DNA of 64,000 nt, taken from Candidatus Doudnabacteria bacterium. GTDB taxonomy: Bacteria > Patescibacteriota > Doudnabacteria > UBA920. Positions 6,290 to 26,592 of the stretch are shown piece after piece (positions within the stretch are counted from its first letter, which is position 1; the number at the start of each line of letters is the position of its first letter). The notes below the pieces were generated by a model. It did not search any database. It was not told the DNA's origin and worked only from the letters and a program-made list of their open reading frames with translations. The position numbers were made by a program, and so were the translations under genes. Location of the stretch: contig PLYC01000010.1 in NCBI GenBank assembly GCA_003151625.1, positions 4,283 to 68,282 on the forward strand, in the 5' to 3' direction.

Positions 6290-6665
6290 GTAAAATCTGT
6301 CACGATTTTAGAATTATAAGCACTTATTCGCCCCGTACCAGTCGTATGACTCCGGTGCAGGGCATAAACCAGTCGCCCATTCAGCACTCACAGTATCCAC
6401 TTAATTGGTTTGTGGCTGTGCCATAAACCGGAGCGAACACAGTGAGCGACTGGTTTATGGTTGCGGGACCCGGACTCGAACCGGGAACCTCAAGGTTATG
6501 CATACCACTACAACTTTAATTGCTTCGCAAAATTGCGAATTTGTGGTCTGGACTTTCTCTTTACCCCGACAAATTGTCTGGGTATCTACCATTAAGTCTC
6601 TACACCTTCTCCAAAAAATAAGCCGGAGCTTGGCTCGGGATTACCACCGCTAAGGGCTTCCCCGA
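6290..6665 (-). ncRNA. Candidate structured RNA upstream of and co-oriented with tRNA-Met/tRNA-Asp (possibly RNase P RNA; identity unresolved)
   Basis: No credible ORF; the track ORF 6405..6653 is low-complexity. Minus-sense contains AGAAAGUCCAGACC (resembles the RNase P CR-I/P4 5' strand GGAAAGUCCGG), a UGAAUG..CUGGUUUAU segment (resembles CR-IV/V ..GAUGAAUG..CCGGCUUAU), a 14-bp inverted repeat cataaaccagtcgc/gcgactggtttatg, and a tRNA-like T-arm + acceptor 3' strand + CCA (ggttcccggttcgagtccgggtcccgcaACCA, plus-strand 6451-6483) that lacks a matching 5' acceptor strand. Confidence 0.25.
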
Positions 6666-6937
6666 ATTTGATAGATTATCACGCTGGAATTACTCCCTGC
6701 GTAGCCCATTTAAAGATTAGTTACAAGCGGAGCTAAAAAAACTAACCATACTAACAACTTGAGCCTTGCGAGCTGCCAATTGCTCTATCCCGCAAATACA
6801 GTTTACAATAATTCAATAAAAAAAGCAACACCAAGCGGTTTTTTAGGTTTGTGAACATCAAAGTCCAAGTAAAAAGGCCTTATTTACACTAACGTTAAGC
6901 CGACATTAGTGTAAATGAATGATTTATTGCGAAATAA

Positions 6938-8908: not shown

Positions 8909-10626
<1,718 letters not shown>

Positions 10627-22186: not shown

Positions 22187-22369
22187 AGAGTGGCGCGGTT
22201 AAAAACTTGATAGCCACTCTCTTGTAATTTTTCCTTTAGCCACGGAAACCAATTTTCCTCGGGGTATCCTGCTGTGCCATGAAAAATGAACGCGTTTAAT
22301 CCCATAAAATATAATCAAAAATTATGCCAATTTAAAATTGGTTTATTGTTCTTTGCTGCGCCAAATAAA

Positions 22370-22633
22370 TTATGCCTGTACAAACACCGGGTCGTGTTCA
22401 TGCAATGTTTGTCCGACATGAATTCCCACATAATCACCCGGGTAGGCAACATGCATTGTTTGGTTGGCCACCTGCATTTCGTCAATAGTTTGGAAAAAAT
22501 CGCCATCGGGATCTTTAAAATGCAAAGTCTGGCCGGCCACAAGCCGACCCGAAAGTTTTAGATAGGCCATGCCCTTGTCATTATAATAGTGGAAGACTTC
22601 GCCTACTAACTCTTCGCTGGACATATTTATCAC
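22370..22633 (-). CDS. Hypothetical small protein
   Basis: 87-aa ORF with balanced composition. The overlapping plus-strand ORF 22286..22561 is judged spurious. Confidence 0.4.
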   Translation of the reverse strand: MINMSSEELVGEVFHYYNDKGMAYLKLSGRLVAGQTLHFKDPDGDFFQTIDEMQVANQTMHVAYPGDYVGIHVGQTLHEHDPVFVQA

Positions 22634-22682
22634 CCCCTTTACTTAAAGTATATACCTTTTTGGGAATTTGCAAATAATTAAC

Positions 22683-23189
22683 CTATCTTATACCACTGTC
22701 AAAGGTTATGGTGATTTGGGTGTATTTATTGCTCTGTACCGTGACGGCTTGTTCAACGCCGCGAGGATATTTATTGGTGCTTGCTGGCGCCAAAAGATAT
22801 GTGCCGGGAGAAAGGTCGGCGCTAAATTTCCCGTCCGTGCCGGAGGTAAAGCTGGAAATTTGTTTTGTGCCGTCTGCCGATTTTACATTTATTGTTGCCT
22901 GATACGGCTTGTCCGCGCAGTTTGGATCTGGAGGGATTTTTTGTACCGGGCAAGTTGGCCCGATTACAACAACACCCGCGATGCCGCTATGCATTGCGGC
23001 TGGTGTTGGGCAGGCGGCAAACTCACAGTTAGTCCCTGTCCTCCCCACATAACTGCCATCCGGGCAAAGCTTGGCTTCCTGGGTACAAGCTACGGGAGGA
23101 ATCACGCTCGGCGGTTGCCTTGTCCCGGGCGAATTGATGCCGCACCCTGCCGCAAGCAGTATCACGGAAAATAGAAATATTTTTTTCAT
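22683..23189 (-). CDS. Cys-rich secreted lipoprotein
   Basis: Signal peptide MKKIFLFSVILLAAGC with lipobox LAAGC, and many Cys pairs. The antisense track ORF 22668..23174 is spurious. Confidence 0.55.
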   Translation of the reverse strand: MKKIFLFSVILLAAGCGINSPGTRQPPSVIPPVACTQEAKLCPDGSYVGRTGTNCEFAACPTPAAMHSGIAGVVVIGPTCPVQKIPPDPNCADKPYQATINVKSADGTKQISSFTSGTDGKFSADLSPGTYLLAPASTNKYPRGVEQAVTVQSNKYTQITITFDSGIR

Positions 23190-23244
23190 AGTTTAGCAAA
23201 TAGTTGCAAGTTTAAAGTGGCCGCAGCAGCTAAGCAGTAAAGTC

Positions 23245-23310
23245 TCGGCGCCGTCCGAGCAAAACTTAAAAGGACCATGGCAATAGTCTCGCCTGGTCCT
23301 TGTTTTTTAT
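23245..23310. repeat. Island repeat unit R1 (copy 1)
   Basis: ..ccgagcaaaacttaaaaggaccatggcaatagtctcgcctggtccttgtttttta. Paired with 23796-23856. Confidence 0.7.
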
Positions 23311-23435
23311 ATTAAATTATTTTTCGGAAATTTCATCTTTTTCCCGTATTTCTTTCGCCGTATTGATAATTAGCCTATTTACAGACTCGTCTATAACGGT
23401 AGAGGCGGGGTCAAACGGCAAATAAATAAAAGGTT

Positions 23436-23471
23436 CCTGACACCTTTTCTGATCCTGACACCTTTTCTGAT
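23436..23471. repeat. 18-nt tandem duplication cctgacaccttttctgat x2, part of the motif aaaaggttcctgacacctttt that recurs at 23878-23898
   Basis: Direct reading of the sequence. Confidence 0.7.
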
Positions 23472-23518
23472 CAATCCCAGCCCTACGGGCAAAGACCGGC
23501 GCGACCTACAGTTTAAAT

Positions 23519-23548
23519 ATTGACTGTAAATAAAATTAGGCGTAATAT
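23519..23548 (+). promoter_or_regulatory. Strong sigma70-like promoter (TTGACT-N17-TAATAT) inside a repeat-flanked island
   Basis: ttgactgtaaataaaattaggcgtaatat, followed 7 nt later by ATG. See findings. Confidence 0.35.
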
Positions 23549-23795
23549 TTGCGTTATGGCAGACAATGAGAATCGAGGAAATTTCTGCAGCGGGCAACTC
23601 CCGGCGGGGGGTTTGGAGCCGGCTTCCAAAGGCAAGCACGGCTTCGATATCCCTGTTACCGAGGCCAAAGCGAGAGCTTCCATAAAAGTGACGGCGTATG
23701 TGCCGGCGCAATTAGAGCCGGTGGATTATATCGTCGCCACAGATCCGTCACACAAAGACGGCACTCGCGGCAGCTAATCAACAACCGCTCGATGT

Positions 23796-23856
23796 CGTTC
23801 GAGCAACTTAAAAGGACCGGCAAAAATCTCGCCCGGTCCTTGTTCTTTTATAAAAA
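23796..23856. repeat. Island repeat unit R1 (copy 2)
   Basis: ..cgagcaacttaaaaggaccggcaaaaatctcgcccggtccttgttctttta. Confidence 0.7.
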
Positions 23857-23912
23857 GGCACCTGGCACTTTAATGATTAAAAGGTTCCTGACACCTTTTT
23901 TGTCTTCTTTTT

Positions 23913-24710
23913 CTAAATTCTTTCGACCTTTTTAAATTTTAAATAATATAGTTTGTTTCGTTTTTCAATTTTTATAATTTCTTGCTTCGTTTTATCCTCC
24001 AAATCCGTTAAGCTTTTTAATAGCTTTTCATGCCAATAGTAAACACCACTTATATTTTTATTATCATCTCCAATCAATTGAAAATGTAAGACGAACTGAT
24101 ATCTGAGAAGCTGTTCGGCAAATAGTCTTTCTTCATCATCCAAAACATCAAGGTAGCTCGTCAAACCTTTGGTTTCTTTCAACTTTTTTGTTAGTATTAA
24201 ATTTTTATAAGCATCTCTTGAAAATTTAAACGCCCTTATTTCCGATAAAAAAGAATTAAAACTAGTAAGAGCCTGGTTTAATTCGGCAATTTCTTCTAGT
24301 ATACCGTCAGAAAAATATTTGACTGCAGGAAGAGTTGTTATGGCGTGAAGTGCAGTACTCTCTATTTCAAAAACTTGCATGAACGGCATCGCCCTGGTGT
24401 AATTATTTTCATACCAATTTTTTTCGAATTCTTTTTTATCTATTTCTTTAGGAATAGAATAATTCGGGTGTGTGCCAGTCCAGCCACGCATTGTTAATAG
24501 TTGTGATTTGATTGAATTAATACCCTGGAGGATCTCTCCCTGTTTTCCAAGCTCTTTATCCTTTTTCCTATTTAGATACTCGACTCCAGCAAGGAGGAAT
24601 ACAAACACTCCTAAAGGCACTCCGATAATGGTAGCCCAATTCGAAAGATGTGCTATAAAATTTGGTGACTTGGGTACACAGGCTAAGTGATATAAGTGTC
24701 TACACCACAT
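23913..24710 (-). CDS. Hypothetical membrane-anchored protein (AT-rich gene)
   Basis: 265-aa ORF, one TM helix (IIGVPLGVFVFLLAGV), no recognised motif. Confidence 0.4.
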   Translation of the reverse strand: MWCRHLYHLACVPKSPNFIAHLSNWATIIGVPLGVFVFLLAGVEYLNRKKDKELGKQGEILQGINSIKSQLLTMRGWTGTHPNYSIPKEIDKKEFEKNWYENNYTRAMPFMQVFEIESTALHAITTLPAVKYFSDGILEEIAELNQALTSFNSFLSEIRAFKFSRDAYKNLILTKKLKETKGLTSYLDVLDDEERLFAEQLLRYQFVLHFQLIGDDNKNISGVYYWHEKLLKSLTDLEDKTKQEIIKIEKRNKLYYLKFKKVERI

Positions 24711-24726
24711 TAAGTTTAGATGTTAA

Positions 24727-26592
24727 TTATTTTTTTAAAACAGCCAAAAACGCTTCCTGGGGAATGTCCACGCGGCCGATTTTTTTCATTCGCTTTTTGC
24801 CGCGCTTTTGTTTGTTGAGGAGTTTCATTTTGCGGGTAACGTCGCCGCCGTAGAGATAGCCGGTAACGTCTTTACGTAATGCCGATATAGTTTCGCGGGC
24901 AATTACTTTTCCTCCGATGACGGCTTGGATAGCGACTTCAAATTGATGGCGAGGAATTAGGGTTTTTAGGCGTTCAACAAGACTTTTTCCGTCTACGGCA
25001 GCGTTGGAGCGGTGCATTATCGCGGAGAGTGCAACAACCGGTTCGCCCGCCACTAAAATATCAACTTTAACTAAATCCCCTATCCGCTCGTCAATTAAAT
25101 CGTAATTTAAGGAAGCGTAGCCGCTGGAAACGGATTTTAGCTTGTCGTAAAAATCGGAAATAATATTGGCAAGCGGCATTTCAAAATGCATATCAACTCG
25201 GTCCTTACCAAGGTATTTTATGTCTTTAGATATGGCCCGGCGCTGGGTGGCAATTTCCATAATCGGGCCAATGTAGGTTTGAGGCACTAAAATATTTACG
25301 GACATCCAAGGTTCGTACAATTCCTTGATGATGGAGGGATCCGGAAACTCCGCAGGGTTGTGGATGTACAAATCTTTTCCGGCGCTGGTAACTACATGAT
25401 AAGCGACCGACGGCGCTGTTAAAATTAAATCCAGATTATATTCCCGAGTCAACCGTTCCTGCACAATGTCCATGTGGAGCAAGCCAAGAAAACCAGTGCG
25501 GAATCCAAAACCGATTGACGGGATATTAATCGGCTCAAACTCCAGGGCGGCATCTGACAGTTTTAGTTTGCCCATAGCATCCCGAAGTATGGGGTAATCA
25601 TCCCCGCTTACAGGGAAGATTGTGGCATAAACCATGGGTTTTACGTGTTTATAACCAGGAAGCTGCTGTACGTCGGTTTTACGCTCAAAGAGGGTTATTG
25701 TGTCGCCGACCCTGGCCTTGCTAACGTCACGCAAGCCGGTAACTATGTATCCGACTTCGCCGGTTTTTATACCGCCGCTTTTTTCCATTTTTGGATGGAA
25801 ATAGCCAACCTCCAAACTTTCAAACTGCGTCTGACTACCAATGGCAAATATTTTTTCGCGGTTTTTTAGCTCGCCTTCAAAACAGCGGACAAATACAATA
25901 ACGCCGCGGTGGATGTCGTAAGATGAATCGAATATTAAACCTCTTAACGGTTTTTGTTCGTCGCCGGTTGGAGCCGGAACTTTTTCTATTACCCGTTTAA
26001 TAATTTCTTTTACGCCTTCACCGGTTTTGCCGGAAGCATACAAAATTTCCTCATCTGTAAACCCAAACGCAACCTTAAGTTCGTCCGCGGTTTTTTGGCG
26101 GTCGGAGTTGGGCAGGTCAATTTTATTTACAACAGGAATTAAAACTAAATTGTGCTCAAGTGCCAAATGAACATTGGCCAGGGTTTGAGCTTCTATGCCT
26201 TGGGTAGAATCAACTACTAAAATCGCGCCTTCACAGCAGGCCAGCGAGCGGGAAACTTCGTAACTAAAGTCAACGTGCCCCGGAGTGTCAATCAGATTTA
26301 AGATGTAAGTTGTAGGGGCTGGCTTTAGCCGCCCGTCATCAGTAAGCGGGCGGGCAAGCTCGGCCCCTACAGCTAACTGATATTCCATCCTAACGGGTTG
26401 CAATTTAATCGTTATCCCCCGTTCGCGTTCCAAATCCATTTGGTCGAGTAACTGATCCTTCATGTTCCGCTGTTCCACCGTGTGGGTAATTTCCAAAAGC
26501 CGGTCGGCAAGCGTGGACTTGCCGTGGTCTATATGGGCGATAATACAAAAATTTCTAATATTTTTCTGGTTCATATATATTAACGGCGTCAT
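24727..26592 (-). CDS. lepA: Elongation factor 4 (LepA), carrying an in-frame palindromic insert in the G domain
   Basis: NFCIIAHIDHGKSTLADRLL, DTPGHVDF, NKIDL. 621 aa. Confidence 0.95.
   Translation of the reverse strand: MTPLIYMNQKNIRNFCIIAHIDHGKSTLADRLLEITHTVEQRNMKDQLLDQMDLERERGITIKLQPVRMEYQLAVGAELARPLTDDGRLKPAPTTYILNLIDTPGHVDFSYEVSRSLACCEGAILVVDSTQGIEAQTLANVHLALEHNLVLIPVVNKIDLPNSDRQKTADELKVAFGFTDEEILYASGKTGEGVKEIIKRVIEKVPAPTGDEQKPLRGLIFDSSYDIHRGVIVFVRCFEGELKNREKIFAIGSQTQFESLEVGYFHPKMEKSGGIKTGEVGYIVTGLRDVSKARVGDTITLFERKTDVQQLPGYKHVKPMVYATIFPVSGDDYPILRDAMGKLKLSDAALEFEPINIPSIGFGFRTGFLGLLHMDIVQERLTREYNLDLILTAPSVAYHVVTSAGKDLYIHNPAEFPDPSIIKELYEPWMSVNILVPQTYIGPIMEIATQRRAISKDIKYLGKDRVDMHFEMPLANIISDFYDKLKSVSSGYASLNYDLIDERIGDLVKVDILVAGEPVVALSAIMHRSNAAVDGKSLVERLKTLIPRHQFEVAIQAVIGGKVIARETISALRKDVTGYLYGGDVTRKMKLLNKQKRGKKRMKKIGRVDIPQEAFLAVLKK

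Follow-up and report, generated by a model that had tools for sequence, protein, structure and literature searches.

Comparative evidence for a conserved small-protein gene beside REP-like hairpins at a strain-polymorphic locus of Candidatus Doudnabacteria

What is encoded in the 0.7 kb (positions 23190-23912) that separate a lipoprotein gene from a gene for a 265-aa hypothetical protein in contig PLYC01000010.1 of Candidatus Doudnabacteria? The interval lies in the 64-kb stretch of DNA analyzed here (the window, with a G+C content of 41.5%) and contains a strong candidate promoter, two copies of a repeat (T1, or copy A, and T1', or copy B), and several occurrences of a 21-nt repeat, AAAAGGTTCCTGACACCTTTT, which we call H. 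An earlier note, made from the letters alone, saw no convincing protein in this interval and preferred a small-RNA gene or the remnant of an integrated element. Our comparisons with related genomes point elsewhere: the open reading frame (ORF) that follows the promoter, at 23556-23777, appears to be a real and conserved protein-coding gene. We consider it probable that the locus as a whole is accounted for by this small gene with its own promoter and terminator, by the relic of an older copy of it, and by hairpins resembling repetitive extragenic palindromic (REP) sequences.

The protein family to which this ORF belongs is easily overlooked. In a word-indexed protein search the ORF had no match but itself and so first looked like an orphan, but an exhaustive HMMER search of 1.84 billion representatives overturned that impression by finding four small homologues (P0124, 70 aa; P0125, 75 aa; P0128, 87 aa as called; and P0130, 75 aa) with E-values of 2e-7 to 2e-4. 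A profile search then yielded a fifth, P0132 (73 aa, 62% identical). The family as we use the term has six members of 70 to 76 aa, including the window ORF, and all of the statistics below rest on these few sequences. The proteins can be aligned from end to end (alignments A2 and A5); they share the N-terminal motif RGNFCxGQLxAGGLxP..GYDIPxSEAxA, read in a single frame, and close with DGTRGS or GKSNxxS. Unique tryptic peptides of the 73-aa product include GNFCSGQLPAGGLEPASK and VTAYVPAQLEPVDYIVATDPSHK. Four large proteins with Ig-like, BACON, or Flg_new repeats (P0126, P0127, P0129, and P0131) gave weak matches over multiple stretches, which we set aside as compositional or coincidental because the pattern C.G..P.GG.L....G.H.F is not kept across the small-protein family.

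The nucleotide alignment of the six loci (A4) carries the signature of selection on a protein. Six lineages preserve the ORF over its whole length, with the start codon always in the same place and the C-terminus conserved, and every gap in the coding part is a multiple of three (3, 6, or 9 columns), whereas the gaps in the 3' untranslated region (UTR) are not. Mean pairwise identity at the three codon positions is 0.587, 0.628, and 0.476, with the third position varying most, and the ratio of nonsynonymous to synonymous substitution rates (dN/dS, NG86 method) ranges from 0.18 to 0.71 and is below 1 in all 15 pairs, dS being partly saturated. The codon-usage log-odds score is 0.27 in frame, comparable to those of lepA and murJ, against -0.13 and -0.01 in the other two frames. 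Both of the reading frames pointed out in the earlier note exist; the sense frame (23520..23777) contains the 73-aa gene, and the antisense frame (23391..23711), which the note had dismissed as junk, indeed has no frame-specific codon signal. Because homologues of the same size are conserved, the frame is kept, and dN/dS is below 1, the non-coding reading is refuted on the earlier note's own terms.

The homologues also occupy a corresponding position on their chromosomes. The small gene is convergent with lepA-murJ in loci L243, L244, and L246, as in this region of the window; in L242 it is near lepA with other genes between; and its divergent neighbor in L247 and L248 is a homologue (82% amino acid identity) of the window's 87-aa gene at 22370-22633. 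The LepA proteins at these homologous loci are 85 to 93% identical to that of the window, from which it follows that the carriers of the small gene are related Patescibacteria, and homologues of the lipoprotein are labelled Doudnabacteria, Paceibacterota, and Minisyncoccia. The small gene is ancestral in this patescibacterial group, its place being between the 87-aa-gene homologue and lepA and its orientation convergent with lepA. None of the relatives that carry the small gene has H.

The transcript of this gene can be predicted in some detail. The promoter TTGACT-N17-TAATAT lies within a base of where the earlier note had put it (Table 1), and the ATG at 23556 begins 7 nt past the -10 element, again as that note had observed. 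The layout TTGAYY-17-TAnnAT-7-ATG recurs in six of six loci, with GTG as the start codon in L245. Because no Shine-Dalgarno sequence fits into the 7-nt space, we infer a leaderless mRNA whose transcription would start at the ATG or within 1 to 2 bases of it. The stop codon is followed in all loci by a 6-bp hairpin (hp1) of the form GCUCGA-CGYCGU-UCGAGC, with the stem variants GCUCGG/CCGAGC and GCCCAA/UUGGGC; in the window it is found at 23787-23804 as GCUCGA-UGUCGU-UCGAGC. A terminator hairpin follows hp1, and its arms vary among loci yet stay complementary. The two elements fold in every locus, with a total of -18 to -30 kcal/mol, and a U-run comes after the terminator in five of the six loci, L245 ending at a contig edge.

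These hairpins, together with a conserved one inside the coding region (~23617-23643) that is maintained partly by paired synonymous changes, show covariation. Positions expected to pair do so in 90% of cells, against 83% in shuffled alignments (none of 500 shuffles reaches the observed value), and 7 pairs are changed on both sides (equaled in 1 of 500 shuffles), whereas slid controls are only 20 to 45% paired. In the hp1 stem, 100% of cells pair, and double changes affect 3 pairs. RNAalifold recovers local hairpins only, with no long-range architecture and a covariation term of -0.68 kcal/mol. The RNA-level constraint is thus real but local, of the kind seen in hairpins for mRNA stability or regulation, and is superimposed on a coding gene; judging from the conservation of these mRNA hairpins, expression or stability of the small gene may be controlled at the RNA level. 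As for recognized structured RNAs, the earlier note had proposed covariance-model scans for signal recognition particle (SRP) RNA, 6S RNA, transfer-messenger RNA, and others. With Rfam 15 at its gathering thresholds, such a scan gave no relevant match in the whole window and none at all in 23100-24000, and at E-values up to 10 the latter interval gave only weak terminator-like matches of 10 to 26 bits against thresholds of 39 to 376. An SRP-RNA-like reading of a GGAAGCA-type hairpin was rejected, the motif not being conserved among the homologues and having no Rfam match.

Table 1. Features of the locus in window coordinates, with the transposase loci of other contigs in the last row
Feature	Position	Strand	Description
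Sigma-70-type promoter	23520-23548	+	-35 TTGACT 23520-23525, 17-nt spacer, -10 TAATAT 23543-23548
Small-protein gene (predicted)	23556-23777	+	73 aa, MADNENRGNFCSGQLPAGGLEPASKGKHGFDIPVTEAKARASIKVTAYVPAQLEPVDYIVATDPSHKDGTRGS; evidence from homologues, synteny, codon score, dN/dS
Copy B (T1')	23766-23858	+	Last codons of the small gene, hp1, terminator hairpin 23810-23841, U-run to 23849
Copy A (T1)	23221-23317	+	R S S stop 23222-23233, hp1 23244-23259, terminator hairpin 23268-23301, T-run to 23308
Truncated relic of the 149-aa gene	23317-23421	-	Last 34 codons and stop; tblastn 27/34 aa identical to residues 116-149 of the L001 protein
H and stutter	23428-23471	+	H 23428-23448, stem AAAAGGT/ACCTTTT, 7-nt loop; 18-nt tandem repeat 23436-23471
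Degenerate H-like copy; exact H'	23853-23871; 23879-23899	+	Same orientation as H
Window-specific segment	23424-~23925		~500 nt, no counterpart in L001, which has 397 nt (9370-9766)
RAYT-like transposase loci	L148 2473-3195; L159 2841-3605; L240 3038-3772		L240 from a Minisyncoccia/Patescibacteria metagenome-assembled genome

If the small gene explains the promoter, what are the two repeats that flank it? The earlier note had described them as copies of a ~65-nt unit, each ending in a stem and a T-run; both are real and extend further than it had recognized (Table 1), with ~76 to 80% identity between them, and each comprises a small hairpin, a G+C-rich hairpin, and a T-run. Copy B is the tail of the small gene itself and not a mobile unit. 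Copy A has another origin. In an nhmmer search with the A4 profile, 23221-23308 matched profile positions 220 to 304 (E = 4e-12); the copy starts ..CGC AGC AGC TAA, with an in-frame stop before it, and lies 32 nt from the start of the lipoprotein gene (22683-23189, minus strand), which is itself G+C rich (51.5%, above the 41.5% of the window) and shows no difference in G+C between codon positions. The match to the family profile, the R S S stop, and the place 32 nt from the lipoprotein gene start mark copy A as the remains of a second copy of the small gene, the body of which has given way to the region where the lipoprotein gene starts.

The same relic is present in L001, a metagenome contig from the Joint Genome Institute (JGI) that represents a ~95% identical strain and was located through a near-identical lipoprotein relative; there it spans 9969-9880 and matches the A4 profile with an E-value of 2e-11. 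The relics of the two strains are 87% identical, against ~94% in the surrounding blastn block, and the hp1 of L001 no longer folds, which fits neutral decay. Copy A is probably kept as the minus-strand terminator of a 149-aa gene that abuts it. Set against the homologous loci (alignment A6), the terminator half of T1' is 81 to 88% identical to the relic of its own lineage and 58 to 68% identical to the other loci, whereas the half made up of the coding end and hp1 is 80 to 84% identical to L242 and L246 and 70 to 73% identical to the relic, so that the signal is mixed. A scan of metagenomes for the repeat with the pattern CTTAAAAGGACC-N12-24-GGTCCTT, which is too short for a collection of that size, gave at least 120 loci, none of which resembles the window. 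We also considered the template and variable repeats (TR/VR) of a diversity-generating retroelement and rejected them: the mismatches between T1 and T1' involve all bases rather than adenines, and the repeat consists of four codons and a 3'UTR.

The comparison with L001 shows that the locus is polymorphic, which the earlier note had suggested looking for in related genomes. By blastn the flanks are 92 to 97% identical, window 22201-23423 corresponding to L001 10990-9767 (94% identity) and 23929-26308 to L001 9369-6991, while the ~500 nt between them are specific to the window. The 397 nt that L001 has instead are the 5' part of the 149-aa gene, which is intact in that strain (L001 9424-9873) and of which the window retains only a truncated relic (Table 1). 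The left breakpoint, at 23423/23424, is 4 to 5 nt from H; the right one, at ~23925, falls within the final codons of the 265-aa hypothetical gene (23913-24710, minus strand), ~26 nt past H'. This last gene has also been affected: it is ~80 to 84% identical to its counterpart at L001 8612-9366, compared with ~95% in the flanks, the counterpart is interrupted by stop codons (203 aa are called), and the window gene takes a different C-terminal end from the strain-specific segment. H is absent from L001. A second copy of the segment's core (23470-23765) was found neither in the window nor in L001, and the idea that this core is a decayed lipoprotein paralogue or a decayed REP-associated tyrosine transposase (RAYT) was dropped, there being no similarity by blastn, tblastx, or tblastn.

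H itself deserves closer attention. It forms a 7-bp stem (-4.4/-6.4 kcal/mol) in intergenic DNA, a weak hairpin that is therefore unlikely to be a terminator on its own. The sequence features listed in the earlier note are all confirmed, and H is present as two exact copies and a degenerate one; the exact sequence would be expected 0.00 times in the window by chance, and all three H-like sites of the 64 kb are at this locus. The 18-nt tandem duplication, exactly as that note had described it, is a perfect 2 x CCTGACACCTTTTCTGAT. To place H in a wider setting, we scanned a genome collection with a 17-mer of H and then extended the matches to the full 21-mer, an extension expected by chance in well under 1% of matches. 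Some of the 17-mer matches were due to chance, but the majority did extend to the whole 21-mer. The full exact H was found in at least 75 loci (among L122-L241) and at least 107 copies. Among the matches listed, the metagenome-assembled genomes (MAGs) that bear it belong mostly to Planctomycetota, with others from Alpha- and Betaproteobacteria, Nitrospirales, NC10, Acidobacteriota, Verrucomicrobia, Patescibacteria, and one Woesearchaeota; some genomes have H on several contigs, and for 39 of the copies another H lies in inverted orientation no more than 120 nt away. The 3' arm of H is also partly reiterated in this set, in decaying form (CCTGACACCTTTT..), in 16 cases downstream and in 4 upstream. 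Examples are L240 3058-3000, L214 1548-1480, L162, and L236, and the 18-nt duplication of the window is the same stutter, which could arise by slippage or by repeated cleavage and rejoining at the hairpin. H was absent from IMG/VR viral contigs and PLSDB plasmids, and its exact sequence was not found in a literature search.

When the proteins encoded by ORFs within 400 nt of H were clustered, one family clearly recurred (at least 10 loci), a protein of ~224 aa. Pfam assigns it to Y1_Tnp (E = 6e-18), and its best NCBIfam match is 'REP-associated tyrosine transposase' at 60 to 63 bits, below the 80-bit cut-off; its match to IS200 is at an E-value of 3.5e-4 only. In L148, L159, and L240, H lies inverted upstream of the transposase promoter, and a second H overlaps the stop codon (..AAA GGT TCC TGA, read as KGS stop). 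H is identical across many phyla, though the transposases that it flanks are only ~45 to 54% identical. On these sequence comparisons, H qualifies as a REP-like hairpin that in other genomes flanks a Y1 (HUH) transposase akin to RAYTs. Two further loci may be mentioned here. Contig L224, binned as a Woesearchaeota (DPANN), has exact H at 1242-1262 and 2914-2934, which would mean either spread across domains or a binning error. In L214 (1528-2264, a Ca. Nealsonbacteria MAG), a direct pair of H brackets a ~700-nt segment that holds two small ORFs on the opposite strand, toxin-antitoxin-like by eye.

Several observations speak against the account given so far. The family is tiny, with 6 members among 5.8 billion proteins; the 73-aa protein has no match in Pfam, NCBIfam, or the PDB; and an AlphaFold2 (AF2) model from the six-sequence alignment is of low confidence, with one short helix, a predicted local distance difference test score (pLDDT) of 59, and a predicted template modelling score (pTM) of 0.15. 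Our best guess for the product is a small, largely disordered protein acting through partner binding, expressed from a conserved promoter close to the sigma-70 consensus on an mRNA that hp1 and the coding-region hairpin would stabilize or regulate. The small gene has a G+C content of 56%, against 41.5% for the window, and a 21-nt block, GGRCAACTCNCGGCGGGGGGT, at 23598-23618, which encodes G-Q-L-x-A-G-G, is nearly invariant even at synonymous sites (those sites being invariant in five of the six loci, at the homologous positions of L242-L247); both features would also fit a function at the RNA level. No covarying partner for the block was found in the six-locus alignment. As to H, neither the 64-kb window nor L001 has a RAYT-like gene, the H-like sites of the window are just the three at this locus, and they are direct repeats rather than inverted doublets of the REPIN type. 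Could the transcript, then, be a purely non-coding small RNA of ~295 nt (23556 to ~23849) with a fortuitous ORF? The high G+C relative to the genome, a fold z-score of -3.2 on the plus strand, the two covarying hairpins and terminator, the invariant block, and the combination of no matching protein family with a poor structure model would all be in keeping with it. We nevertheless regard it as highly improbable, since an ORF is kept from fixed start to conserved C-terminus in six lineages, with indels in threes, the third codon position least conserved, dN/dS below 1 in 15 of 15 pairs, and a frame-specific codon score, and since the structure is confined to local hairpins with little covariation energy and resembles nothing in Rfam even at E-values up to 10. 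Another reading is a transcript with two functions, encoding the small protein and also acting as a regulatory RNA or carrying a cis-acting or autoregulatory element (the coding hairpin and hp1). It would draw on the covariation at synonymous sites (CCG..C-GG becomes CCA..T-GG in L242), on hp1 with its conserved loop CGYCGU, fully paired stem, and three double changes, and on the invariance of the 21-nt block. Yet the sequences number only six, the role of hairpins in mRNAs and 3'UTRs is often limited to stability or termination, and in the relatives the terminator is simply shared with convergent lepA; we judge a second function of this kind unlikely.

How the small gene came to be intact in one strain is a separate matter. 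Most likely, the H hairpins were the points of breakage and joining in the rearrangement that distinguishes the two strains, a rearrangement that would have put or kept the intact small gene here at the cost of the 5' part of the 149-aa gene. Its direction counts as another difficulty for our account, as it could have been either a gain in the window strain or a loss in L001. A gain by a single replacement, possibly with a Y1 transposase, is more economical, whereas a loss in L001 requires two deletions sharing one breakpoint; the place of the small gene beside lepA, on the other hand, is ancestral. One possible history starts from an ancestor with two tandem copies of the small gene, of which the one near the lipoprotein gene was destroyed, L001 later deleting the second and the window strain deleting the 5' part of the 149-aa gene, with H as a deletion hot spot. 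It agrees with the ancestral position, with the closeness of the T1' terminator half to the relic of its own lineage, and with the divergence of the copies (~20 to 24%, against ~5% between the strains), which would date the duplication before the strain split. Against it stand the two independent deletions that would have to share the breakpoint 23423/23424 where one replacement would do, and the greater likeness of the other half of T1' to L242 and L246 than to the relic, though the relic is neutral; we consider this history possible but would not favor it. More doubtful still is that the ~500 nt bracketed by H form a non-autonomous mobile cassette, 'PATE'-like within the IS200/IS605 group, which a RAYT-like Y1 transposase acting in trans moved into the 149-aa gene, re-delivering to the lineage, in intact form, a gene that it had lost. 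Direct copies of H at both ends reproduce the end geometry of IS200/IS605, the left breakpoint is separated from the foot of H by 4 to 5 nt, a 95% identical strain lacks the segment, and it is at precisely this place that the 149-aa gene is cut short; moreover, both strains retain the older copy of the small gene only as a relic, the relatives that have the small gene carry no H, and a similar H...H arrangement surrounds the two small ORFs in L214. However, the 64 kb contain no transposase, the core has no second copy in the window or L001, the event was a replacement with a loss of 397 nt and not a clean insertion, and the small gene is on the lepA side as in the relatives and may never have moved. 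RAYTs are not known to move cargo. The widest form of this idea, which we put forward as speculation and think improbable, is that H and a diverged RAYT-like transposase constitute a REP system spreading horizontally across phyla, Patescibacteria and a DPANN-labelled MAG among them, with direct H pairs as the ends of a trans-mobilized cassette that re-delivered the lost small gene. If it were true, it would give REP/RAYT systems a role in gene shuffling, against the prevailing view of mostly vertical inheritance without cargo.

The earlier note's other suggestion, the remnant of an integrated element, thus survives in part: there is a strain-specific segment bracketed by REP-like hairpins, but of the terminator-like repeats on which the note had relied, one appears to be the relic of a second gene copy and the other the tail of the gene itself. 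The segment can be compared with several known systems. In the REP/RAYT 'REPtron', repeats flank the transposase gene (PMC3116915, PMC6006769). Like REPs, H is an extragenic hairpin, here of 21 nt, which elsewhere is multi-copy and often arranged in inverted doublets 20 to 60 nt apart, and inverted copies of it flank a Y1 HUH transposase that finds its best NCBIfam match in the RAYT model. Unlike them, H is identical across phyla, whereas the described REPs are usually lineage-specific; its transposase falls short of the 80-bit equivalog cut-off; and the window has three direct copies with no RAYT in view. The two described super-families of REPs carry a GTAG or CGTC tag (PMC3733652), and neither tetranucleotide occurs in or beside H on either strand.

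For a comparison with mobile elements, the starting point is that derivatives of IS200/IS605 depend on a Y1 transposase acting on hairpins. The window segment resembles IS200/IS605 and PATE elements (PMC6006769) in that a short stretch carries a similar, equally oriented subterminal hairpin at each end. It differs from them in that no transposase and no tnpB or omega-RNA remnant was found in the segment, that a host gene, still in its ancestral neighborhood, makes up the cargo, and that no second copy of the segment was seen. An integron cassette with attC was rejected as a candidate: H and T1 lack the GTTRRRY / RYYYAAC cores, and the list of neighboring ORFs contains no integrase-like gene (Pfam was run on five of these ORFs).

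The small gene and its 3' end have parallels of their own. With leaderless small-protein genes it shares a -10 element 7 nt from the start codon, and with these and with dual-function RNAs such as SgrS/SgrT and RNAIII/hld it shares a short ORF in a structured, strongly promoted and terminated transcript; it has no sequence relationship to any of these, and the evidence for it is comparative only. The A-tract, G+C-rich hairpin, and T-tract are those of a bidirectional intrinsic terminator, and in L246 the hairpin occupies the 61 nt between the small gene and lepA. Two things set the locus apart from such terminators: the additional hp1 with its conserved loop, which termination does not need, and the persistence of copy A as a relic that has probably been reused as the terminator of another gene. 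Elsewhere in the window, at 6466-6795 on the minus strand, a group I intron (Rfam RF00028, 66.9 bits, 6526-6728) apparently interrupts the anticodon loop of a tRNA with a CAU anticodon (Met/Ile2 type); ARAGORN did not call the tRNA, and its exons were read by eye.

Genomes such as this one are usually regarded as streamlined and static. Our comparisons suggest instead a locus that records a small gene destroyed, then intact again, and polymorphic between strains that are 95% identical. Beside it stands a hairpin that has the same sequence across many phyla and is tied to a divergent RAYT-type transposase, although REP sequences are normally lineage-specific. Small-protein genes of the sort described here are systematically under-annotated. 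In sum, a seemingly non-coding region in a reduced patescibacterial genome would, on this evidence, be a conserved and probably leaderless small-protein gene, belonging to a family that is absent from Pfam and NCBIfam.

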